Origin: a virus | Taxonomy: Duplodnaviria; Heunggongvirae; Uroviricota; Caudoviricetes | DNA: 46,106 nucleotides | Strand: one strand, 5' to 3' | IMG/VR virus record: IMGVR_UViG_2563366942_000012 | Part shown: positions 41,714 to 46,106 of the stretch, piece after piece | How positions within the stretch are numbered: the first letter of the stretch is position 1 | Layout of the letters: each line of letters starts with the position of its first letter | The notes under the pieces: generated by a model | Seen by the model: the letters and a program-made list of their open reading frames with translations, nothing else | Databases searched by the model: none | Told to the model about the DNA's origin: nothing | Translations under genes and position numbers: made by a program

Positions 41714-43549
41714 GTGGATATGGCAGCAGTAAAAATCTCAGGTGTGCTGAAAGATGGTGCGGGAAAACCAATACAGAACTGCACTATTCAACTGAAGGCA
41801 AAACGTAACAGCACAACGGTTGTGGTGAACACGGTGGCCTCAGAAAATCCGGATGAAGCCGGGCGTTACAGTATGGATGTTGAGTATGGCCAGTACAGCG
41901 TTATCCTGCTGGTTGAAGGTTTTCCGCCTTCACATGCCGGGACCATTACCGTTTATGAAGGTTCCAGACCAGGTACGCTGAATGATTTTCTGACTGCCCC
42001 CGACGAAGGCGACCTGAAGCCAGATGTGGTGAAACGATTTGAAGATTTGACAAGTCAGGCGCGACGAAGTGCAGATGTGGCAATATCAGCGACAAAAAGG
42101 GCAGAAGCGTTACTGTCTGAAATGCAGGGAATAGCCGATAGTTTTCCCGGTTTGCGCTTTGAGAACTTTGACGACATCGTGAGTCGTTGCACTACTGCAA
42201 TGTTAAAACTGGAACAACCCGAGGTTGTTGATACATCAATATCTTTAAAAATAAAAGAAAATATCGATTTTAATTATGTCGGTGCAGTTAACGGATATTG
42301 CGATATTTCTGAACCAGAAAAGTATAAAGTCGAAATGTATGCTTATACAACCGGAGAGTATTTTAACGGCGACGCTAATTTGAATAGTGACGGAACTTTC
42401 TATTTCAGACGTTGCTGGACGGGAGCAAAACAGTTTCGTCTTATTCGGATTGAGGATAATGCGTGGATCACAACGCTGGAGTTTCCACTGCTCATTCGTA
42501 GCTACTGGATGCCGGAGGACGCAGACCCCGAAGTGATCAGGGTGATGAAAGATCGGTGTTACACGTATGACCAGGCGCTGGCAGCACTGGCGTTGATGGT
42601 TCAGCGACATGAGGCTGTAGAAAGATACGTTGCGGGCTTGTGTGCGCTTGTTGATGAAAACGGTGGAGTAAAGTTTTTTGTTAACAGGCTGTCTGCCATG
42701 TCACCGCGTACCTATTACCGCTTGGGCAATGCGGCATGGGTTTATTATGCTCTTGCTTTCTATCTGGAGAAGTATCCGGACGGTACTCAGACTGCGCGGG
42801 TCAGAGAAAAGCTATTGGCAGGCATTGCCTGGCTGGATACTTTTCTGGTGAGCACACCAGGCGACCTGCGTGAAGGCCTGTATAAAGGGGGGCAGGGGCG
42901 TTATGTGGACGGCAATTTTGATGAAACTTTCGTCGCCGAATGGTGCGCACTGGAGCATAACGTTGATATCTGGTTTTTGTTTGAACTGATGGGACGGCTG
43001 GGATTTGACGGTTTCAGTGAGCGGGCTGACAGGCTGGCAAAGAGTATCATCAGAGGTCTGTGGGTGGAAGATGAAGGCCGATTTCGACAGGGGGTTCATT
43101 CAACCCACTATGACAACGCAGCGGCGCTGGATCAGTCTTCCTGGGGCGGATTGTTTGTTGCCAATATTGATGCTGAGAAAGCGGCTAAGTGCCGAAAATA
43201 TATGGGGCGTTTTTTATTTGGTACGAGGGAAACCACGGGTTACACACCGTACCACCCTGATTATGGTTATAGTGGTCACAGCCGTGGCGTGTGGGTGGAA
43301 GGAACGGCAGGTGTGGCACTTTTTGAGCGCAAGCTGGGTAATGAGCTGAATGCGGTGAATCTTGTGGCAGCAATGGCTCCACTTTTTAATGAGTACGGTT
43401 ATCGTGATTCTTGCGATAACCTGGCATACGATGTGCTGCCTTCCTGGCCATCAACAACAAACACTGCCTGGATCATTCTGGCTGTAAAGCCAGATAATTT
43501 CTGGTTAGTGGATTCGCCAGAAATGGATGTAGGGACAATCCGCTATTGA
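41714..43549 (+). CDS. Chimeric side-tail-fibre-like protein: lambda Stf-like N-terminal domain fused to a non-fibre C-terminal domain, possibly an (alpha/alpha)-barrel glycan-active enzyme
   Basis: N-terminal 110 aa nearly identical to remembered lambda Stf (AVKISGVLKDGAGKPIQNCTIQLKAKRNSTTVVVN...); remainder lacks fibre repeats and is rich in Trp/Tyr helical segments; AT-rich junction at 42230..42450. Confidence 0.6.
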   Translation: MDMAAVKISGVLKDGAGKPIQNCTIQLKAKRNSTTVVVNTVASENPDEAGRYSMDVEYGQYSVILLVEGFPPSHAGTITVYEGSRPGTLNDFLTAPDEGDLKPDVVKRFEDLTSQARRSADVAISATKRAEALLSEMQGIADSFPGLRFENFDDIVSRCTTAMLKLEQPEVVDTSISLKIKENIDFNYVGAVNGYCDISEPEKYKVEMYAYTTGEYFNGDANLNSDGTFYFRRCWTGAKQFRLIRIEDNAWITTLEFPLLIRSYWMPEDADPEVIRVMKDRCYTYDQALAALALMVQRHEAVERYVAGLCALVDENGGVKFFVNRLSAMSPRTYYRLGNAAWVYYALAFYLEKYPDGTQTARVREKLLAGIAWLDTFLVSTPGDLREGLYKGGQGRYVDGNFDETFVAEWCALEHNVDIWFLFELMGRLGFDGFSERADRLAKSIIRGLWVEDEGRFRQGVHSTHYDNAAALDQSSWGGLFVANIDAEKAAKCRKYMGRFLFGTRETTGYTPYHPDYGYSGHSRGVWVEGTAGVALFERKLGNELNAVNLVAAMAPLFNEYGYRDSCDNLAYDVLPSWPSTTNTAWIILAVKPDNFWLVDSPEMDVGTIRY

Positions 43550-43610
43550 CTCTCTTGTTGTTTGATAAACCGACAAAAGGATAAATATCAGCGATCCATT
43601 CTGTGCTGTT

Positions 43611-43675
43611 TGATTGTGCGCTCCCCGCTCAGAATTGCGCGTCAATTAGCCTATAAAAAATCGCGAAGATACAAT
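43611..43675 (+). repeat. About 65 bp element, copy A (repeated at 45435..45500)
   Basis: TGTGCGCTCCCCGC(T/C)CAG(A/C)ATTGCGCGTCAATTAGCC followed by an A-run and ACAAT; the two copies bracket the tfa/methyltransferase cargo block. Confidence 0.6.
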
Positions 43676-43876
43676 ACGTACTTCATTGCGCTTGAACACC
43701 CCAGGCATAATATCGCTGGATTGAAATGTTCGGACATGGCAAGCGAATGAATATGCCGTGGTGGGGCGGTTTTGATCCGCGCGCGTGGGATGTGGCAAGC
43801 CTGATGGATTTTGCTGTGCCGGTGGTGGCGTGTCTGCTGGTCTGGCTGTTGGTTAATCGTGGGTGAAAAAAGGTGA

Positions 43877-44005
43877 GCTGTATATGCAACGGAGGAAGAA
43901 ACCTCGTTGCTGGAAGCCTGGAAAAAGTATCGGGTGTTGCTGAACCGTGTTGATACATCAACTGCACCTGATATTGAGTGGCCTGTGAACCCTGTCAGGG
44001 AGTAA
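43877..44005 (+). pseudogene. Remnant of tail fibre assembly gene tfa (C-terminal 42 codons, no start)
   Basis: Encodes ...[39 protein letters not shown], matching the lambda Tfa C-terminus; the frame opens directly after an in-frame stop. Confidence 0.7.
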
Positions 44006-44059
44006 TCATTGGGATTATGCCGCAGCACGTCTTAAGCAAGAACGTGCTGCGGTTGGATG

Positions 44060-44728
44060 CTATTTTTTCCCTGAAGCGGAAAACATTACTACAGTACCTT
44101 GAACCTTGGTTTTAACATTCTCGAAATGCTCTGAGAGTATATGTGTTAAGCCTTCTTCGGAATCTTTTGTGTTTGAAAAGATGCCTTTCTGATTGTAAAT
44201 GCGCATCAGTTTTTGACCGAAGCTATTGTGCACAACTCCATCGCCAAGAATTGTGGCTCCGTATAGAGTTCCATCGTCAGTTAAGGCCTGCGCCGCATTG
44301 CGTATTACACAGCTTTTTGTAGATATATTTCCAGGCAGGCAGTGAAGAAGGTAAAACATGGAAATGGAATCAAATTGACCATGTAACGTCGCGGGATAAG
44401 GTTCAAAAACATCATGGCTAATTTTATGTTTAATTTTTGATTCCCCAGCCCTTGTAGATGCCGCGTTCAGGCTAGCTTCGTTCAAATCCATTAAAGATAT
44501 CAGACTACTCTCAGGTACGTGAGTAAGGTAAAACCCAGTTCCAACACCAATATCCAGATGGTTGTTACCTAAATGTTCCAGAAAGTGTGGAAGAAGGTGT
44601 TCCTTTGTAGGACATCCCCATGCAAGCCGATTTGATACTCCCAAAACCCACCAGTCATAAAGCTTTAGGGTAAGTGGTGTGTAAATTTTAGCCCCATCAT
44701 CTGTGTTTTTTTTCATTAATTTCACCAT
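44060..44728 (-). CDS. Class I SAM-dependent methyltransferase (cargo gene)
   Basis: 222 aa with AdoMet-binding motif I DIGVGTGFY and acidic motif-II-like LMDLNE; AT-rich codon usage unlike the flanking phage genes; flanked by direct repeats of the tfa 3' end. Confidence 0.65.
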   Translation of the reverse strand: MVKLMKKNTDDGAKIYTPLTLKLYDWWVLGVSNRLAWGCPTKEHLLPHFLEHLGNNHLDIGVGTGFYLTHVPESSLISLMDLNEASLNAASTRAGESKIKHKISHDVFEPYPATLHGQFDSISMFYLLHCLPGNISTKSCVIRNAAQALTDDGTLYGATILGDGVVHNSFGQKLMRIYNQKGIFSNTKDSEEGLTHILSEHFENVKTKVQGTVVMFSASGKK

Positions 44729-44784
44729 GTTATAGTTTTATTTGTGAATTAAATCAATTATGGCGATGAATTACAAGGGGTTAA

Positions 44785-45054
44785 ATGCTGCCGCAGCATA
44801 GCGATATTGAAATAGCCTGGTATGCTTCGATACAGCAGGAGCCGAATGGCTGGAAGACCGTCACCACACAGTTCTACATCCAGGAATTCAGTGAGTATAT
44901 TGCGCCACTGCAGGATGCTGTAGATCTGGAAATCGCAACGGAGGAAGAAAGATCGTTGCTGGAGGCATGGAATAAATATCGGGTATTGTTGAATCGTGTT
45001 GATACATCAACTGCACCTGATATTGAGTGGCCTGCAAATCCTGTCAGGGAGTAA
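44785..45054 (+). CDS. Truncated tail fibre assembly protein (Tfa C-terminal half)
   Basis: 89 aa; C-terminal 50 residues match lambda Tfa ([51 protein letters not shown]); about half the length of full Tfa, so possibly non-functional. Confidence 0.55.
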
Positions 45055-45434
45055 TCATTGGGATTATGCCGCAGACACGTCGTATGCAGGAACGTGCTGC
45101 GGTTAGTTTGTGAGCTTTCGATAGTGGTTGTTATTTTTGCCCTTATTTGTTCCGGAGGCCCTGGTTCAATGGTCCGTCTGCCCCCTGTGGTGATGTCAGC
45201 AAAATCAGCCACTGCGCGAACCACAATAGCCCGGGAAGATGCTGAAGATCACCAGGTAAAGCTGTCAGCGCAGAAACTGGAAGAACTGCTCGCATCAATG
45301 GTTAAGGATGAGGTTGATCGCAATGATGGGATTTATTGACGTCAGCGAGAGCAGAAGGAAGAACTGAATAACCTGAATGATTTACGCTCAATCAGAGCGA
45401 TGATGATTGGCAGTAATTAGCGGTCAATTTCGGT

Positions 45435-45500
45435 TTTTTTGGCTGTGCGCTCCCCGCCCAGCATTGCGCGTCAATTAGCCCCAAAAAAACGAAAAAGTTA
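45435..45500 (+). repeat. About 65 bp element, copy B
   Basis: Direct repeat of 43611..43675 located in the AT-rich arm just inside the right prophage junction. Confidence 0.6.
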
Positions 45501-45651
45501 CAATCAAGTAAAAAATCCCTTCTGCAAAACTAAAAAAGATTTCAATAAAATCAGACAGTTAAAAACATAAAAAAAAGGTACAAAAAAGCATCTCAAAGTC
45601 TTGTTTTTTGCTTCAAATACAATTGGTTATTGTGTTTTTTGAAACCTACCA

Positions 45652-45768
45652 GTGTGGTACATGGATATCGATACCACCGCCAATTATAAACTGGGCGGTG
45701 CACAGCAACACGATAGCGTACGCCTCGATCCGTGGGTGTTTATGTTCTCAGCAGGATATCGTTTTTAA
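45652..45768 (+). pseudogene. ompW: ompW 3'-terminal fragment at the right prophage junction (attR-associated)
   Basis: Encodes ...WYMDIDTTANYKLGGAQQHDSVRLDPWVFMFSAGYRF-stop, matching the OmpW C-terminus, with no upstream ORF; preceded by AT-rich phage-arm DNA. Confidence 0.65.
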
Positions 45769-45827: not shown

Positions 45828-46106
45828 TTATTTCTTCGCTTCTACGCCATCAGTTTCAGAGCGAATTAAAAATTTCTCAGTTGTTTGCGGAATATGCTGA
45901 ATCAGCCAGTCGGCCATTTGCTTTTCCTCATTTAAAATCGCTTCGATGGTTGGAATTGAAGCTGTATCACCGGCATTTTTTGCTGCTGCTAAGAGTGAGG
46001 TGTAACAGGCGATTTCAAATTGCTCGAAGACATATCCGCTAATAGAGCCTTTGACTATTTCATCAGAAGGAAATATACCACCGATTGACTGCCCAAGCGC
46101 AGCCAT
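45828..46106 (-). CDS. yciE: Host gene yciE (ferritin-like DUF892 protein); 5' end truncated by the window edge
   Basis: 92 aa C-terminal portion ...AALGQSIGGIFPSDEIVKGSISGYVFEQFEIACYTSLLAAAKNAGD... matches remembered E. coli YciE; hairpin terminator downstream on the minus strand at about 45781..45805. Confidence 0.7.
   Translation of the reverse strand: MAALGQSIGGIFPSDEIVKGSISGYVFEQFEIACYTSLLAAAKNAGDTASIPTIEAILNEEKQMADWLIQHIPQTTEKFLIRSETDGVEAKK

Follow-up and report, generated by a model that had tools for sequence, protein, structure and literature searches.

The tfa–ybcY–tfa′ cargo module in the right arm of a lambdoid prophage integrated in ompW

The stretch of DNA analyzed here, the window, is 46,106 nucleotides long and is a lambdoid prophage integrated in ompW; it matches E. 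coli MS 21-1, whose prophage is located in that gene, at 100% identity. Toward its right end lies a block that we take, with a probability of about 0.85, to be the right-arm cargo region of the prophage, centered on a widespread tfa–ybcY–tfa′ module. By gene order and alignment, the block is the module already annotated in the K-12 prophage DLP12. It is a known and widespread prophage moron and offers little that is new. That is, the block is real but ordinary, since ybcY is present in 3832 of 5426 complete E. coli genomes (about 70%), in all of them at a nucleotide identity of at least 95%.

Morons are extra transcription units between the conserved late genes of lambdoid phages, such as lom and bor of λ, as described by Hendrix and colleagues. 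The likeness of ybcY to these is in its deviant base composition, its orientation opposite to that of the late operon, a promoter-like sequence of its own, a hairpin at its 3′ end, and its presence or absence between otherwise near-identical prophages. Whereas typical morons occupy a plain intergenic gap, ybcY is bracketed by homologous gene ends. We propose that ybcY would be a self-contained, oppositely oriented, AT-rich moron encoding a methyltransferase of 218–222 residues of the small-molecule or lipid type. The wider region would be a stack of scars. It starts on the left with stf611 and a short element, and continues with a truncated 97-residue gene, a tfa end, ybcY, the tfa′ end, a DUF4376 end with another copy of the element and, finally, attR.

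The ybcY gene and its surroundings

The methyltransferase gene occupies 44060–44728 on the minus strand, where the list of open reading frames gives a 222-residue product, a predicted class I SAM-dependent methyltransferase of PHROG 2132. By alignment, it corresponds to K-12 ybcY (pseudogene b0562), but is intact. The motif DIGVGTG comprises residues 59–65. The PHROG 2132 match is full-length (E = 2.9e-156), with residues 5–222 on profile positions 1–218 of 218. The true start is probably the ATG at 44716, giving 218 residues, since M5 is invariant in the family alignment, the homologues are mostly 218 residues long, and the PHROG alignment begins at residue 5. The GC content is 0.407 in the gene and 0.342 in the 79 bp upstream of it, against 0.518 for the whole window and 0.55 for the late/tail region. 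An earlier note on this DNA had described a minus-strand methyltransferase of 222 residues with this motif in AT-rich DNA; the reading frame, the Pfam matches given below and the base composition confirm that description.

An AT-rich candidate promoter region for ybcY, identified from the sequence and a promoter scan, extends over 44729–44784 on the minus strand. One candidate pairs TTGATT (44757–44752) with TATAAC (44734–44729) across a 17-nt spacer, and the other pairs TTAACC with CATAAT across a 16-nt spacer (44784–44757). In the scan, promoter-like sites were no commoner than in shuffled sequence. The RpoD genomic SELEX table for K-12 enters TTGATT-17-TATAAC for ybcY, with an H-NS mark (PMC3946193). 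We suggest that, in the lysogen, a sigma-70 promoter belonging to ybcY itself would drive its transcription under the influence of H-NS, and that the transcript would run into a hairpin common to ybcY and the convergent tfa remnant.

This left hairpin, found by folding at 44019–44053, lies between the convergent tfa remnant and ybcY, beginning 13 nt past the tfa stop and finishing 6 nt short of the ybcY stop codon. It folds with −28.5 kcal/mol on one strand and −23.0 kcal/mol on the other (z about −5.5). A right hairpin at about 45068–45103, which differs from the left copy by one extra base and three substitutions, folds with −24.1 kcal/mol (z = −3.4). The left hairpin looks like a bidirectional terminator, a role that is putative because both hairpins lack a canonical U-tract on either strand, and the left one was not among the calls of the terminator scan. 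Accordingly, of the claim that each repeat carries the same stem-loop terminator, the stable hairpins stand but their designation as terminators is weakened.

The genes around the module are for the most part remnants. To the left, stf611 (41714–43549, plus strand) is an intact side tail fiber gene of 611 codons (Pfam phage_tail_N, E = 5.5e-62; PHROG 13714/4128, “tail fiber protein”) and is the current functional tail fiber module. The remnant at 43676–43866 (plus strand), recognized by alignment and translation, is the 5′-truncated part of a gene for a 97-residue hypothetical membrane protein, of which phages ev243 and 2G7b and strain Ecol_316 have an intact version; the PGAP annotation of the remnant, in the identical genome, reads “hypothetical protein, frameshifted”. 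To the right of the module, a DUF4376 tail fiber-type pseudogene remnant (45151–45420, plus strand) is annotated by PGAP in the identical genome and matches PHROG 1141/7703; it has an internal stop and lacks its N-terminus. A motif search places a putative integrase arm-type site, TCTGCAAAAC, at 45521–45530 on the plus strand; the same motif has four tandem occurrences at attL, in the interval that separates int from the ompW stop. In the PGAP annotation, the prophage ends in an ompW 3′ remnant (45643–45768, plus strand), the attR core region, which is followed by yciE on the minus strand; ompW is intact at attL.

The tfa repeats and exchange between them

The direct repeats that bracket ybcY extend from 43886 to 44054 and from 44935 to 45104, and the copies are identical at 154 of 170 positions, with one 1-nt indel. 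Each contains the last 39 codons of tfa and the stop (ATEEE[T/R]SLLEAW...PVRE*), followed by the hairpin. The coding part of the left repeat is a tfa remnant without a start codon (43886–44005, plus strand). That of the right repeat lies within tfa′ (44785–45054, plus strand), a TfaX-like open reading frame of 89 codons in which the Tfa C-terminus makes up the final ~55 residues. The tfa′ product matches positions 75–130 of the 131-position Pfam profile Caudo_TAP (E = 6e-25) and PHROG 2341, and PGAP annotates tfa′ as an N-terminally incomplete tfa pseudogene; its 3′ end differs between loci. The earlier note had placed repeats of about 150 bp at 43901–44057 and 44962–45107, each with the last codons of tfa. 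The repeats and their tfa content are as described, but the 5′ ends had been set 15–27 nt too far in.

Two other readings of these repeats were rejected. An invertible tail fiber segment of the Gin/Cin/Pin type does not fit, as the repeats are direct and not inverted; there is no adjacent serine invertase, and the methyltransferase gene is the only open reading frame of at least 120 codons between 43550 and 45800. A scan of the block against Rfam gave matches to IS009 (RF02111) of 112.5 and 71.6 bits, below the gathering score of 117, both on the tfa coding remnants, and only sub-threshold matches to CssrB. Since the matches are sub-threshold and lie on the tfa remnants and the hairpin, neither was taken as an RNA gene.

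The two copies look like the ends of two different tfa alleles and not like a fresh duplication, since they are only 90.6% identical to each other, each has 97–99% identity with the copy at the same position in other genomes, and the 3′ end of the full-length O157 tfa is 96.3% identical to the left copy and 88.6% to the right. It is quite unlikely that a mobile methyltransferase cassette entered an intact tfa and duplicated the tfa 3′ end in situ, as a target duplication. Direct repeats of about 170 bp do immediately bracket an AT-rich insert, and homologues in other genera are often near IS or transposase genes. However, the repeats differ by 9.4%, yet the methyltransferase that they enclose is 98.5–100% identical across loci, and each copy is less similar to its partner than to the equivalently placed copy of other genomes and to tfa alleles that differ between the two. 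Nor is the duplicated length fixed, since the left tfa is full-length in K-12 and in phage PhiR26_1, where its homology to the right copy reaches 227 bp. In addition, no transposase, integrase or terminal inverted repeat is found within 43886–45104.

That the repeats do recombine is indicated by a natural variant. In two ovine strains, ECL27829 and ECL27977, this prophage is present in ompW but lacks the methyltransferase gene and has a single repeat, a chimera of left and right. This repeat has the left-type SNPs at 43986, 43987 and 43990, followed by the right-type hairpin and downstream sequence, which places the crossover inside the 35-bp identical stretch 43991–44025/45040–45074. The chimera shows only exchange through the repeat; the methyltransferase-less state could in principle be ancestral and not the outcome of a deletion. 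A survey for presence or absence of the gene between the repeats, as the earlier note had advised, thus did turn up prophages without it. Of the proposal that the block is cargo inserted by recombination, what holds is that ybcY is non-tail cargo and that the repeats are recombination substrates; the insertion is not particular to this prophage.

We propose that the two tfa ends would have been left behind as tail fiber modules were swapped in, presumably from the left. The ends may act as homology arms, since the coding sequence for the Tfa C-terminus is conserved among lambdoid phages, and the cassette would be carried between prophages, or looped out, via homologous recombination of the RecA or Red type. 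De Paepe et al. (2014, PMC3945230) showed experimentally that λ acquires markers placed in the stf/tfa homology of the defective prophages Rac and Qin via relaxed homologous recombination. Their system resembles the window in that Tfa/Stf coding homology of 88–96% provides the arms by which a marker between them enters another phage. It differs in that their exchange was experimental and inter-molecular, whereas the evidence for the window is comparative and the event may be an intra-molecular loop-out. With its crossover mapped to 35 bp, the locus would be a clean natural example of the conserved ends of tail fiber chaperone genes serving as homology arms in the transfer or loss of cargo.

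Distribution of the module and the outer short element

The tfa flanks usually accompany ybcY. The left junction, a tfa 3′ end directly behind ybcY, is found in 3066 genomes (about 80% of carriers), and the right junction, a tfa′ fragment in front of ybcY, in 3431 (about 90%), counting BLAST “places” with at least 80% coverage, some of which are joined pieces. A cargo insertion at the tfa terminus had been suggested; one peculiar to a single prophage is not compatible with a module this widespread, with these flanks in 80–90% of its carriers. The earlier note had also named, as the finding that would count against it, the same gene at the same position in most related prophages without flanking repeats; the position is indeed shared, but the repeats are there.

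In K-12, the cryptic prophage DLP12 has the order tfaD–ybcY(−)–tfaX, with the same orientations as in the window, and positions 43886–45031 of the window align with this segment of NC_000913 at 97.2% identity. The methyltransferase gene of K-12 strains is 99.1% identical to the copy in the window, and the promoter hexamers are the same. The differences are as follows. K-12 ybcY is a frameshifted pseudogene, whereas the window has an intact reading frame; the left tfa is the full-length tfaD in K-12 but 39 codons behind the truncated 97-residue gene in the window; and appY–ompT lies downstream in K-12, as opposed to the DUF4376 remnant and attR in ompW.

The inducible lambdoid phages ev243, 2G7b (genus Nesevirus) and PhiR26_1 have the arrangement Lom–tail fiber–(tfa or tfa remnant)–ybcY(−)–tfa′, as in the window, and their methyltransferases are 99.1–99.5% identical to that of the window at the protein level. 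Phages ev243 and 2G7b also share with the window the junction of the 97-residue gene with the tfa remnant at 43886. Homology of all three phages with the window stops at about 45009. Past tfa′, they continue with an alpha/beta hydrolase gene, ompT, att and int, whereas the window has the hairpin, the DUF4376 remnant and the ompW att; unlike the window, they have an intact 97-residue gene and no left short element.

Outside the Escherichia prophages, eight YbcY homologues in Salmonella, Enterobacter, Yersinia, Aeromonas, Klebsiella and Citrobacter are solitary genes, and no neighbor common to them was found. Genomic context therefore gives no functional clue. Our literature searches found only incidental mentions of ybcY and tfaX, and nothing that joins methyltransferase, tail fiber assembly and moron in lambdoid phages.

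A short element recurs outside the tfa repeats. By BLAST, the pair is 52 bp long at 86.5% identity (43609–43660/45438–45489), and at 75% identity the match can be followed over 89 nt, giving a left copy at 43587–43675 (core 43616–43651) and a right copy at 45416–45504 (core 45445–45480). The left copy always stands directly after stf611 and, in the window, replaces the first ~35 codons of the 97-residue gene. The right copy immediately follows the DUF4376 stop codon and lies next to, but not in, the attP P-arm. In one case where the left copy seemed to have another context, the difference was due only to an IS66 insertion. The element had been described as 65 bp long, at 43611–43675 and 45435–45500, and as the outer pair of a nested cargo structure. 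It is real, although weaker than described, and the nesting is not upheld, as each copy has its own fixed context. Nothing ties the pair to mobility of the cargo.

We regard it as very unlikely that this pair delimits a bigger block of cargo that moves or recombines, for example as the fossil att arm of a former tandem prophage. The 36-nt core has only 2 mismatches between the copies, with 0 matches expected in shuffles, and the right copy adjoins the attP P-arm, with the arm-type site at 45521. Against this, each copy has a single context, the left after stf611 in 35 genomes and the right after the DUF4376 tail fiber pseudogene by the attP arm in 651. The motif TCTGCAAAAC is absent near the left copy, for which reason the element was rejected as an att-arm fossil. 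Among the matches listed, none joins stf611 and the element directly to att, and none shows recombination between the left and right copies. The homology is also short, and the RNA folds are no stabler than those of shuffles (z-scores of −0.3 to −1.5), so a structured RNA was likewise rejected.

Nature and role of the methyltransferase

The product of ybcY confidently adopts, in the model, the class I (Rossmann) fold of SAM-dependent methyltransferases, with the corresponding activity predicted. Pfam Methyltransf_12 matches with 37.6 bits (cut-off 30), and Methyltransf_23, Methyltransf_25 and Methyltransf_11 likewise exceed their cut-offs. The AF2 model has a pLDDT of 90.8 and the seven-stranded alpha/beta arrangement of this fold. 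Its nearest PDB structures are PmtA, JHAMT, phosphoethanolamine methyltransferases, C-MeT domains, Coq5 and UbiG; the neighbors are overwhelmingly small-molecule and lipid methyltransferases, with a few tRNA and mRNA-cap enzymes. Identity to the solved small-molecule and lipid enzymes (PmtA 8ys9, JHAMT 7ec0, PfPMT 3uj7, Coq5 4obw, UbiG 4kdc) is 12–21%, and no single one of them stands out. The most likely substrate, judged from the fold, would be a small metabolite, a xenobiotic or a lipid, and not DNA. Membership in the NCBIfam families CpaM, RquA and PmtA was rejected, with scores of only 16–18 bits against cut-offs of 175–390. Two motifs invariant in and specific to the YbcY family, YDWWVL near the N-terminus and LLHCLPG after strand 4, were matched to no characterized enzyme.

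Phage-borne methyltransferases are often DNA methyltransferases, and the protein might by that token shield phage or host DNA from restriction. This reading is effectively refuted. The Pfam matches are limited to small-molecule-type families, no DNA methyltransferase family of Pfam or NCBIfam is matched, and no DNA methyltransferase is among the fold matches listed; the 222 residues hold no target-recognition domain, and the best PDB sequence matches are JHAMT and UbiG. The sole PADLOC match is marginal (mad2, E = 0.0033), and we therefore propose no defense system. An effector of the NleE type, or another type III effector, was also rejected, as no effector family is matched and the homologues are solitary in contexts without a type III secretion system. 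The earlier note had not recognized the protein as NleE or any named effector, and the Pfam, NCBIfam and PHROG scans, which returned generic methyltransferase families only, agree with it.

That the gene is an inert, decaying remnant without function for phage or host, common only through hitch-hiking with tail fiber modules, is unlikely. It is surrounded by pseudogene fragments, and it has been lost without other change in the two ovine strains. It is also dispensable, since the K-12 copy is frameshifted and a K-12 ybcY mutant was like the wild type for growth inhibition on Hha overexpression, in one reported assay (PMC2408971). On the other hand, 24 copies were recovered and all 23 full-length, ungapped ones examined are intact, with 12 distinct synonymous and 9 non-synonymous codon changes (dN/dS roughly 0.25). 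PGAP annotates ybcY as intact in nearly all genomes among the matches listed, the inducible phages keep it, and 55 residues are invariant across a family that reaches down to 55% identity in other genera.

As a discovery, the locus carries small weight, as both ybcY and its arrangement between tfa ends already have annotations in K-12 and thousands of genomes; the gene nonetheless ranks among the prophage accessory genes most widespread in E. coli. A doubtful proposal, which we offer with reserve, is that YbcY enzymes are lysogenic-conversion factors that methylate an envelope lipid, in the manner of PmtA, or detoxify a metabolite or xenobiotic, with the tfa arms circulating the allele. If this were true, YbcY would alter host fitness or phage susceptibility, and the tfa arms would keep one allele, at least 95% identical, moving among unrelated tail fiber modules and att sites.

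The right arm of the ompW prophage

The window, to which E. coli MS 21-1 is 100% identical, is a lambdoid prophage integrated in ompW, with the integrase at the left end and an attL that carries an intact, restored ompW. In the right arm, J and then lom are followed by stf611, a 611-aa tail-fibre gene (41714–43549), and the left copy of a short element (43587–43675). Next come a 5′-truncated gene for a 97-aa protein (43676–43866), the last 39 codons of tfa (43886–44005), a hairpin (44019–44053), and the minus-strand methyltransferase gene (44060–44728). An AT-rich promoter region separates the latter from tfa′, a TfaX-like ORF of 89 aa (44785–45054). A second hairpin, a DUF4376 pseudogene remnant (45151–45420), the right copy of the short element (45416–45504), the attP arm, and a 126-bp ompW 3′ remnant (45643–45768) complete the arm, with yciE next.

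At attL, the motif (C)TCTGCAAAAC is found in four tandem copies in the interval from the ompW stop codon to the integrase gene (about 1520–1565 in comparison locus L035). A single TCTGCAAAAC lies in the right arm, at 45521–45530, and none is present near the left copy of the short element. In phages that integrate in ompW, these copies probably serve as arm-type binding sites for the integrase.

The host gene yciE at attR (45828–46106, minus strand) is frameshifted with an internal stop according to the MS 21-1 annotation; it is intact in other strains with ompW prophages. The stf611 ORF is unbroken in the window; of it, the PGAP annotation of MS 21-1 covers only the initial ~139 codons, labelled a partial pseudogene. 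Its C-terminal part is called a 'glucosidase family protein' in the annotation of another genome. The gene is not followed by a tfa-type chaperone gene.

A widely shared tfa–ybcY–tfa′ module

The methyltransferase gene corresponds to K-12 ybcY (b0562), a pseudogene in prophage DLP12, but is intact. DLP12 is annotated tfaD–ybcY (minus strand)–tfaX, and window segment 43886–45031 aligns with it at 97.2%. Of 5426 complete E. coli genomes, 3832 contain the gene, each time with a nucleotide identity of ≥95%. Queries spanning the left junction (tfa end, hairpin, and methyltransferase 3′ end) and the right junction (methyltransferase 5′ end and tfa′) are covered at ≥80% in 3066 and 3431 genomes, respectively. 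Three sequenced phages, ev243, 2G7b, and PhiR26_1, share this gene order; in them the module is followed by an alpha/beta hydrolase gene, ompT, att, and int. Given the DLP12 layout, these counts, and the phage gene order, the cargo at the tfa terminus described in the earlier note is real but is a conserved, shared module, not peculiar to this prophage. The observation is confirmed and its interpretation supported in part: the feature is the already known, very common tfa–ybcY–tfa′ module.

Repeats and exchange at the module's flanks

The inner direct repeats (43886–44054 and 44935–45104) are identical at 154 of 170 positions, with one 1-nt indel, and each holds 39 tfa codons with their stop codon as well as a hairpin. 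Both hairpins are highly stable (z = −5.5 left, −3.4 right), but neither has the canonical U-tract of the terminators earlier proposed, and a terminator scan did not call the left one. A duplication made on insertion looks unlikely as the source of the repeats, for the two tfa ends show 9.4% divergence, and each is 97–99% identical to the copy at the corresponding position in other genomes. Moreover, a full-length O157 tfa is 96.3% identical to the left copy vs 88.6% to the right. The repeats therefore look like the remaining ends of two distinct tfa alleles after tail-fibre module exchange. Rfam models also match here: IS009, a candidate E. coli sRNA family, at 112.5 and 71.6 bits on the tfa remnants (44808–45011 and 43864–43962), both below the gathering score of 117, and CssrB at 32.6 bits on the left hairpin (43989–44051). 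These models seem to overlap tfa coding sequence that is conserved.

In two ovine strains, ECL27829 and ECL27977, the same ompW prophage lacks the methyltransferase gene. Their single repeat has left-type SNPs at 43986, 43987, and 43990, then a right-type hairpin and downstream sequence; this switch places a crossover within the identical 35 bp of 43991–44025 and 45040–45074. Such a chimeric repeat is the signature of homologous recombination through the repeats. Insertion of the gene by the same route is the less parsimonious reading; since the module is so common, deletion in the ovine strains is the more parsimonious. Phage λ has been shown experimentally to take up markers embedded in the stf/tfa homology of Rac and Qin prophages by relaxed recombination dependent on Redβ/RecA (PMC3945230).

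The left flank has undergone repeated replacement. K-12 and PhiR26_1 have a full-length left tfa, whereas in ev243, 2G7b, and Ecol_316 only 39 codons of it remain, behind an intact gene for the 97-aa protein. In the window, as across 35 genomes in all, sequence that follows stf611 has in turn replaced the first ~35 codons of this 97-aa gene. The gene encodes a predicted membrane protein (MDITPFLHALCAVAAQLL…; 43676–43866 here, 3900–4193 in L002) and, in many ompW prophages as well as in ev243 and 2G7b, lies between tail-fibre genes and the tfa remnant. On the right, >20 loci retain the tfa′ 5′ end; after …RVDTS (about 45009), several lineages have other sequence in place of the 3′ end. O157 strain FDAARGOS_293 (L007 1290–3503) holds a katN–yciE/F/G-like four-gene stress operon, encoding a manganese catalase and YciE-, YciF-, and YciG-like proteins, between a full-length tfa and the methyltransferase gene (equivalent to 43994–44014); the slot thus accepts varied cargo across prophages. 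In ETEC O6:H16 2011EL-1370-2 (L013 2405–5640), the stf611 3′ end, short element, and methyltransferase gene lie beside potB, so the block has moved between att sites. The prophage there is a heavily deleted remnant in which a portal fragment adjoins the tail-fibre fragment.

The outer pair, earlier described as a 65-bp repeat lying outside the inner ones, is present but weaker: its copies align over 52 bp at 86.5%, and their 36-nt core has 2 mismatches (0 matches expected in shuffles). The right copy lies immediately 3′ of the DUF4376 stop codon; 651 genomes have it, nearly all of them just once. The left copy is found solely behind stf611, in 35 genomes. Just these two contexts occur among 29 occurrences in the fetched loci and window; a seeming variant (L029) is an IS66 insertion, and in a seeming exception (L032) the upstream match is partial. 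RNA folds of the element do not exceed those of shuffled sequence in stability. We treat the element as a short 3′ flank common to two tail-fibre-type genes, not a cargo boundary.

The methyltransferase gene and its product

The gene is AT-rich, as first noticed (GC 0.407 vs 0.518 for the window). Translation probably starts at M5 (ATG 44716), giving 218 aa, because M5 is invariant, most homologues have 218 aa, and alignment to the ybcY-family profile PHROG 2132 begins at residue 5. Among the 24 full-length copies in the fetched loci, 23 align ungapped, all 23 intact; the 12 synonymous and 9 non-synonymous distinct codon changes suggest mild purifying selection.

The homologues of 55–90% identity in Salmonella, Enterobacter, Citrobacter, Klebsiella, Yersinia, and Aeromonas each stand alone, and no neighbouring gene is conserved among them. 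In the loci examined for upstream gaps (L008, L010, L036, L038, and L040), an unusually long gene-free stretch of ~460–850 bp precedes the Salmonella, Yersinia, Aeromonas, and Klebsiella genes, and only ~120 bp the Enterobacter gene. The long stretch may be DNA that these loci share for regulation or H-NS binding. Upstream of the window's gene are the hexamers TTGATT-17-TATAAC, which a K-12 RpoD SELEX table lists for ybcY with an H-NS mark (PMC3946193). The gene would be a moron, transcribed from its own promoter against the late operon.

The AF2 model is confident (pLDDT 90.8), and the family profile matches JHAMT at 1.9e-5; family and defence-system searches gave no pointer to DNA methylation or a known defence system. 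The expected substrate of the product is a small metabolite, a xenobiotic, or a lipid. In the sole assay found in the literature, a K-12 ybcY mutant behaved as wild type. The remaining interest lies in what this gene, present in about 70% of E. coli genomes, does.
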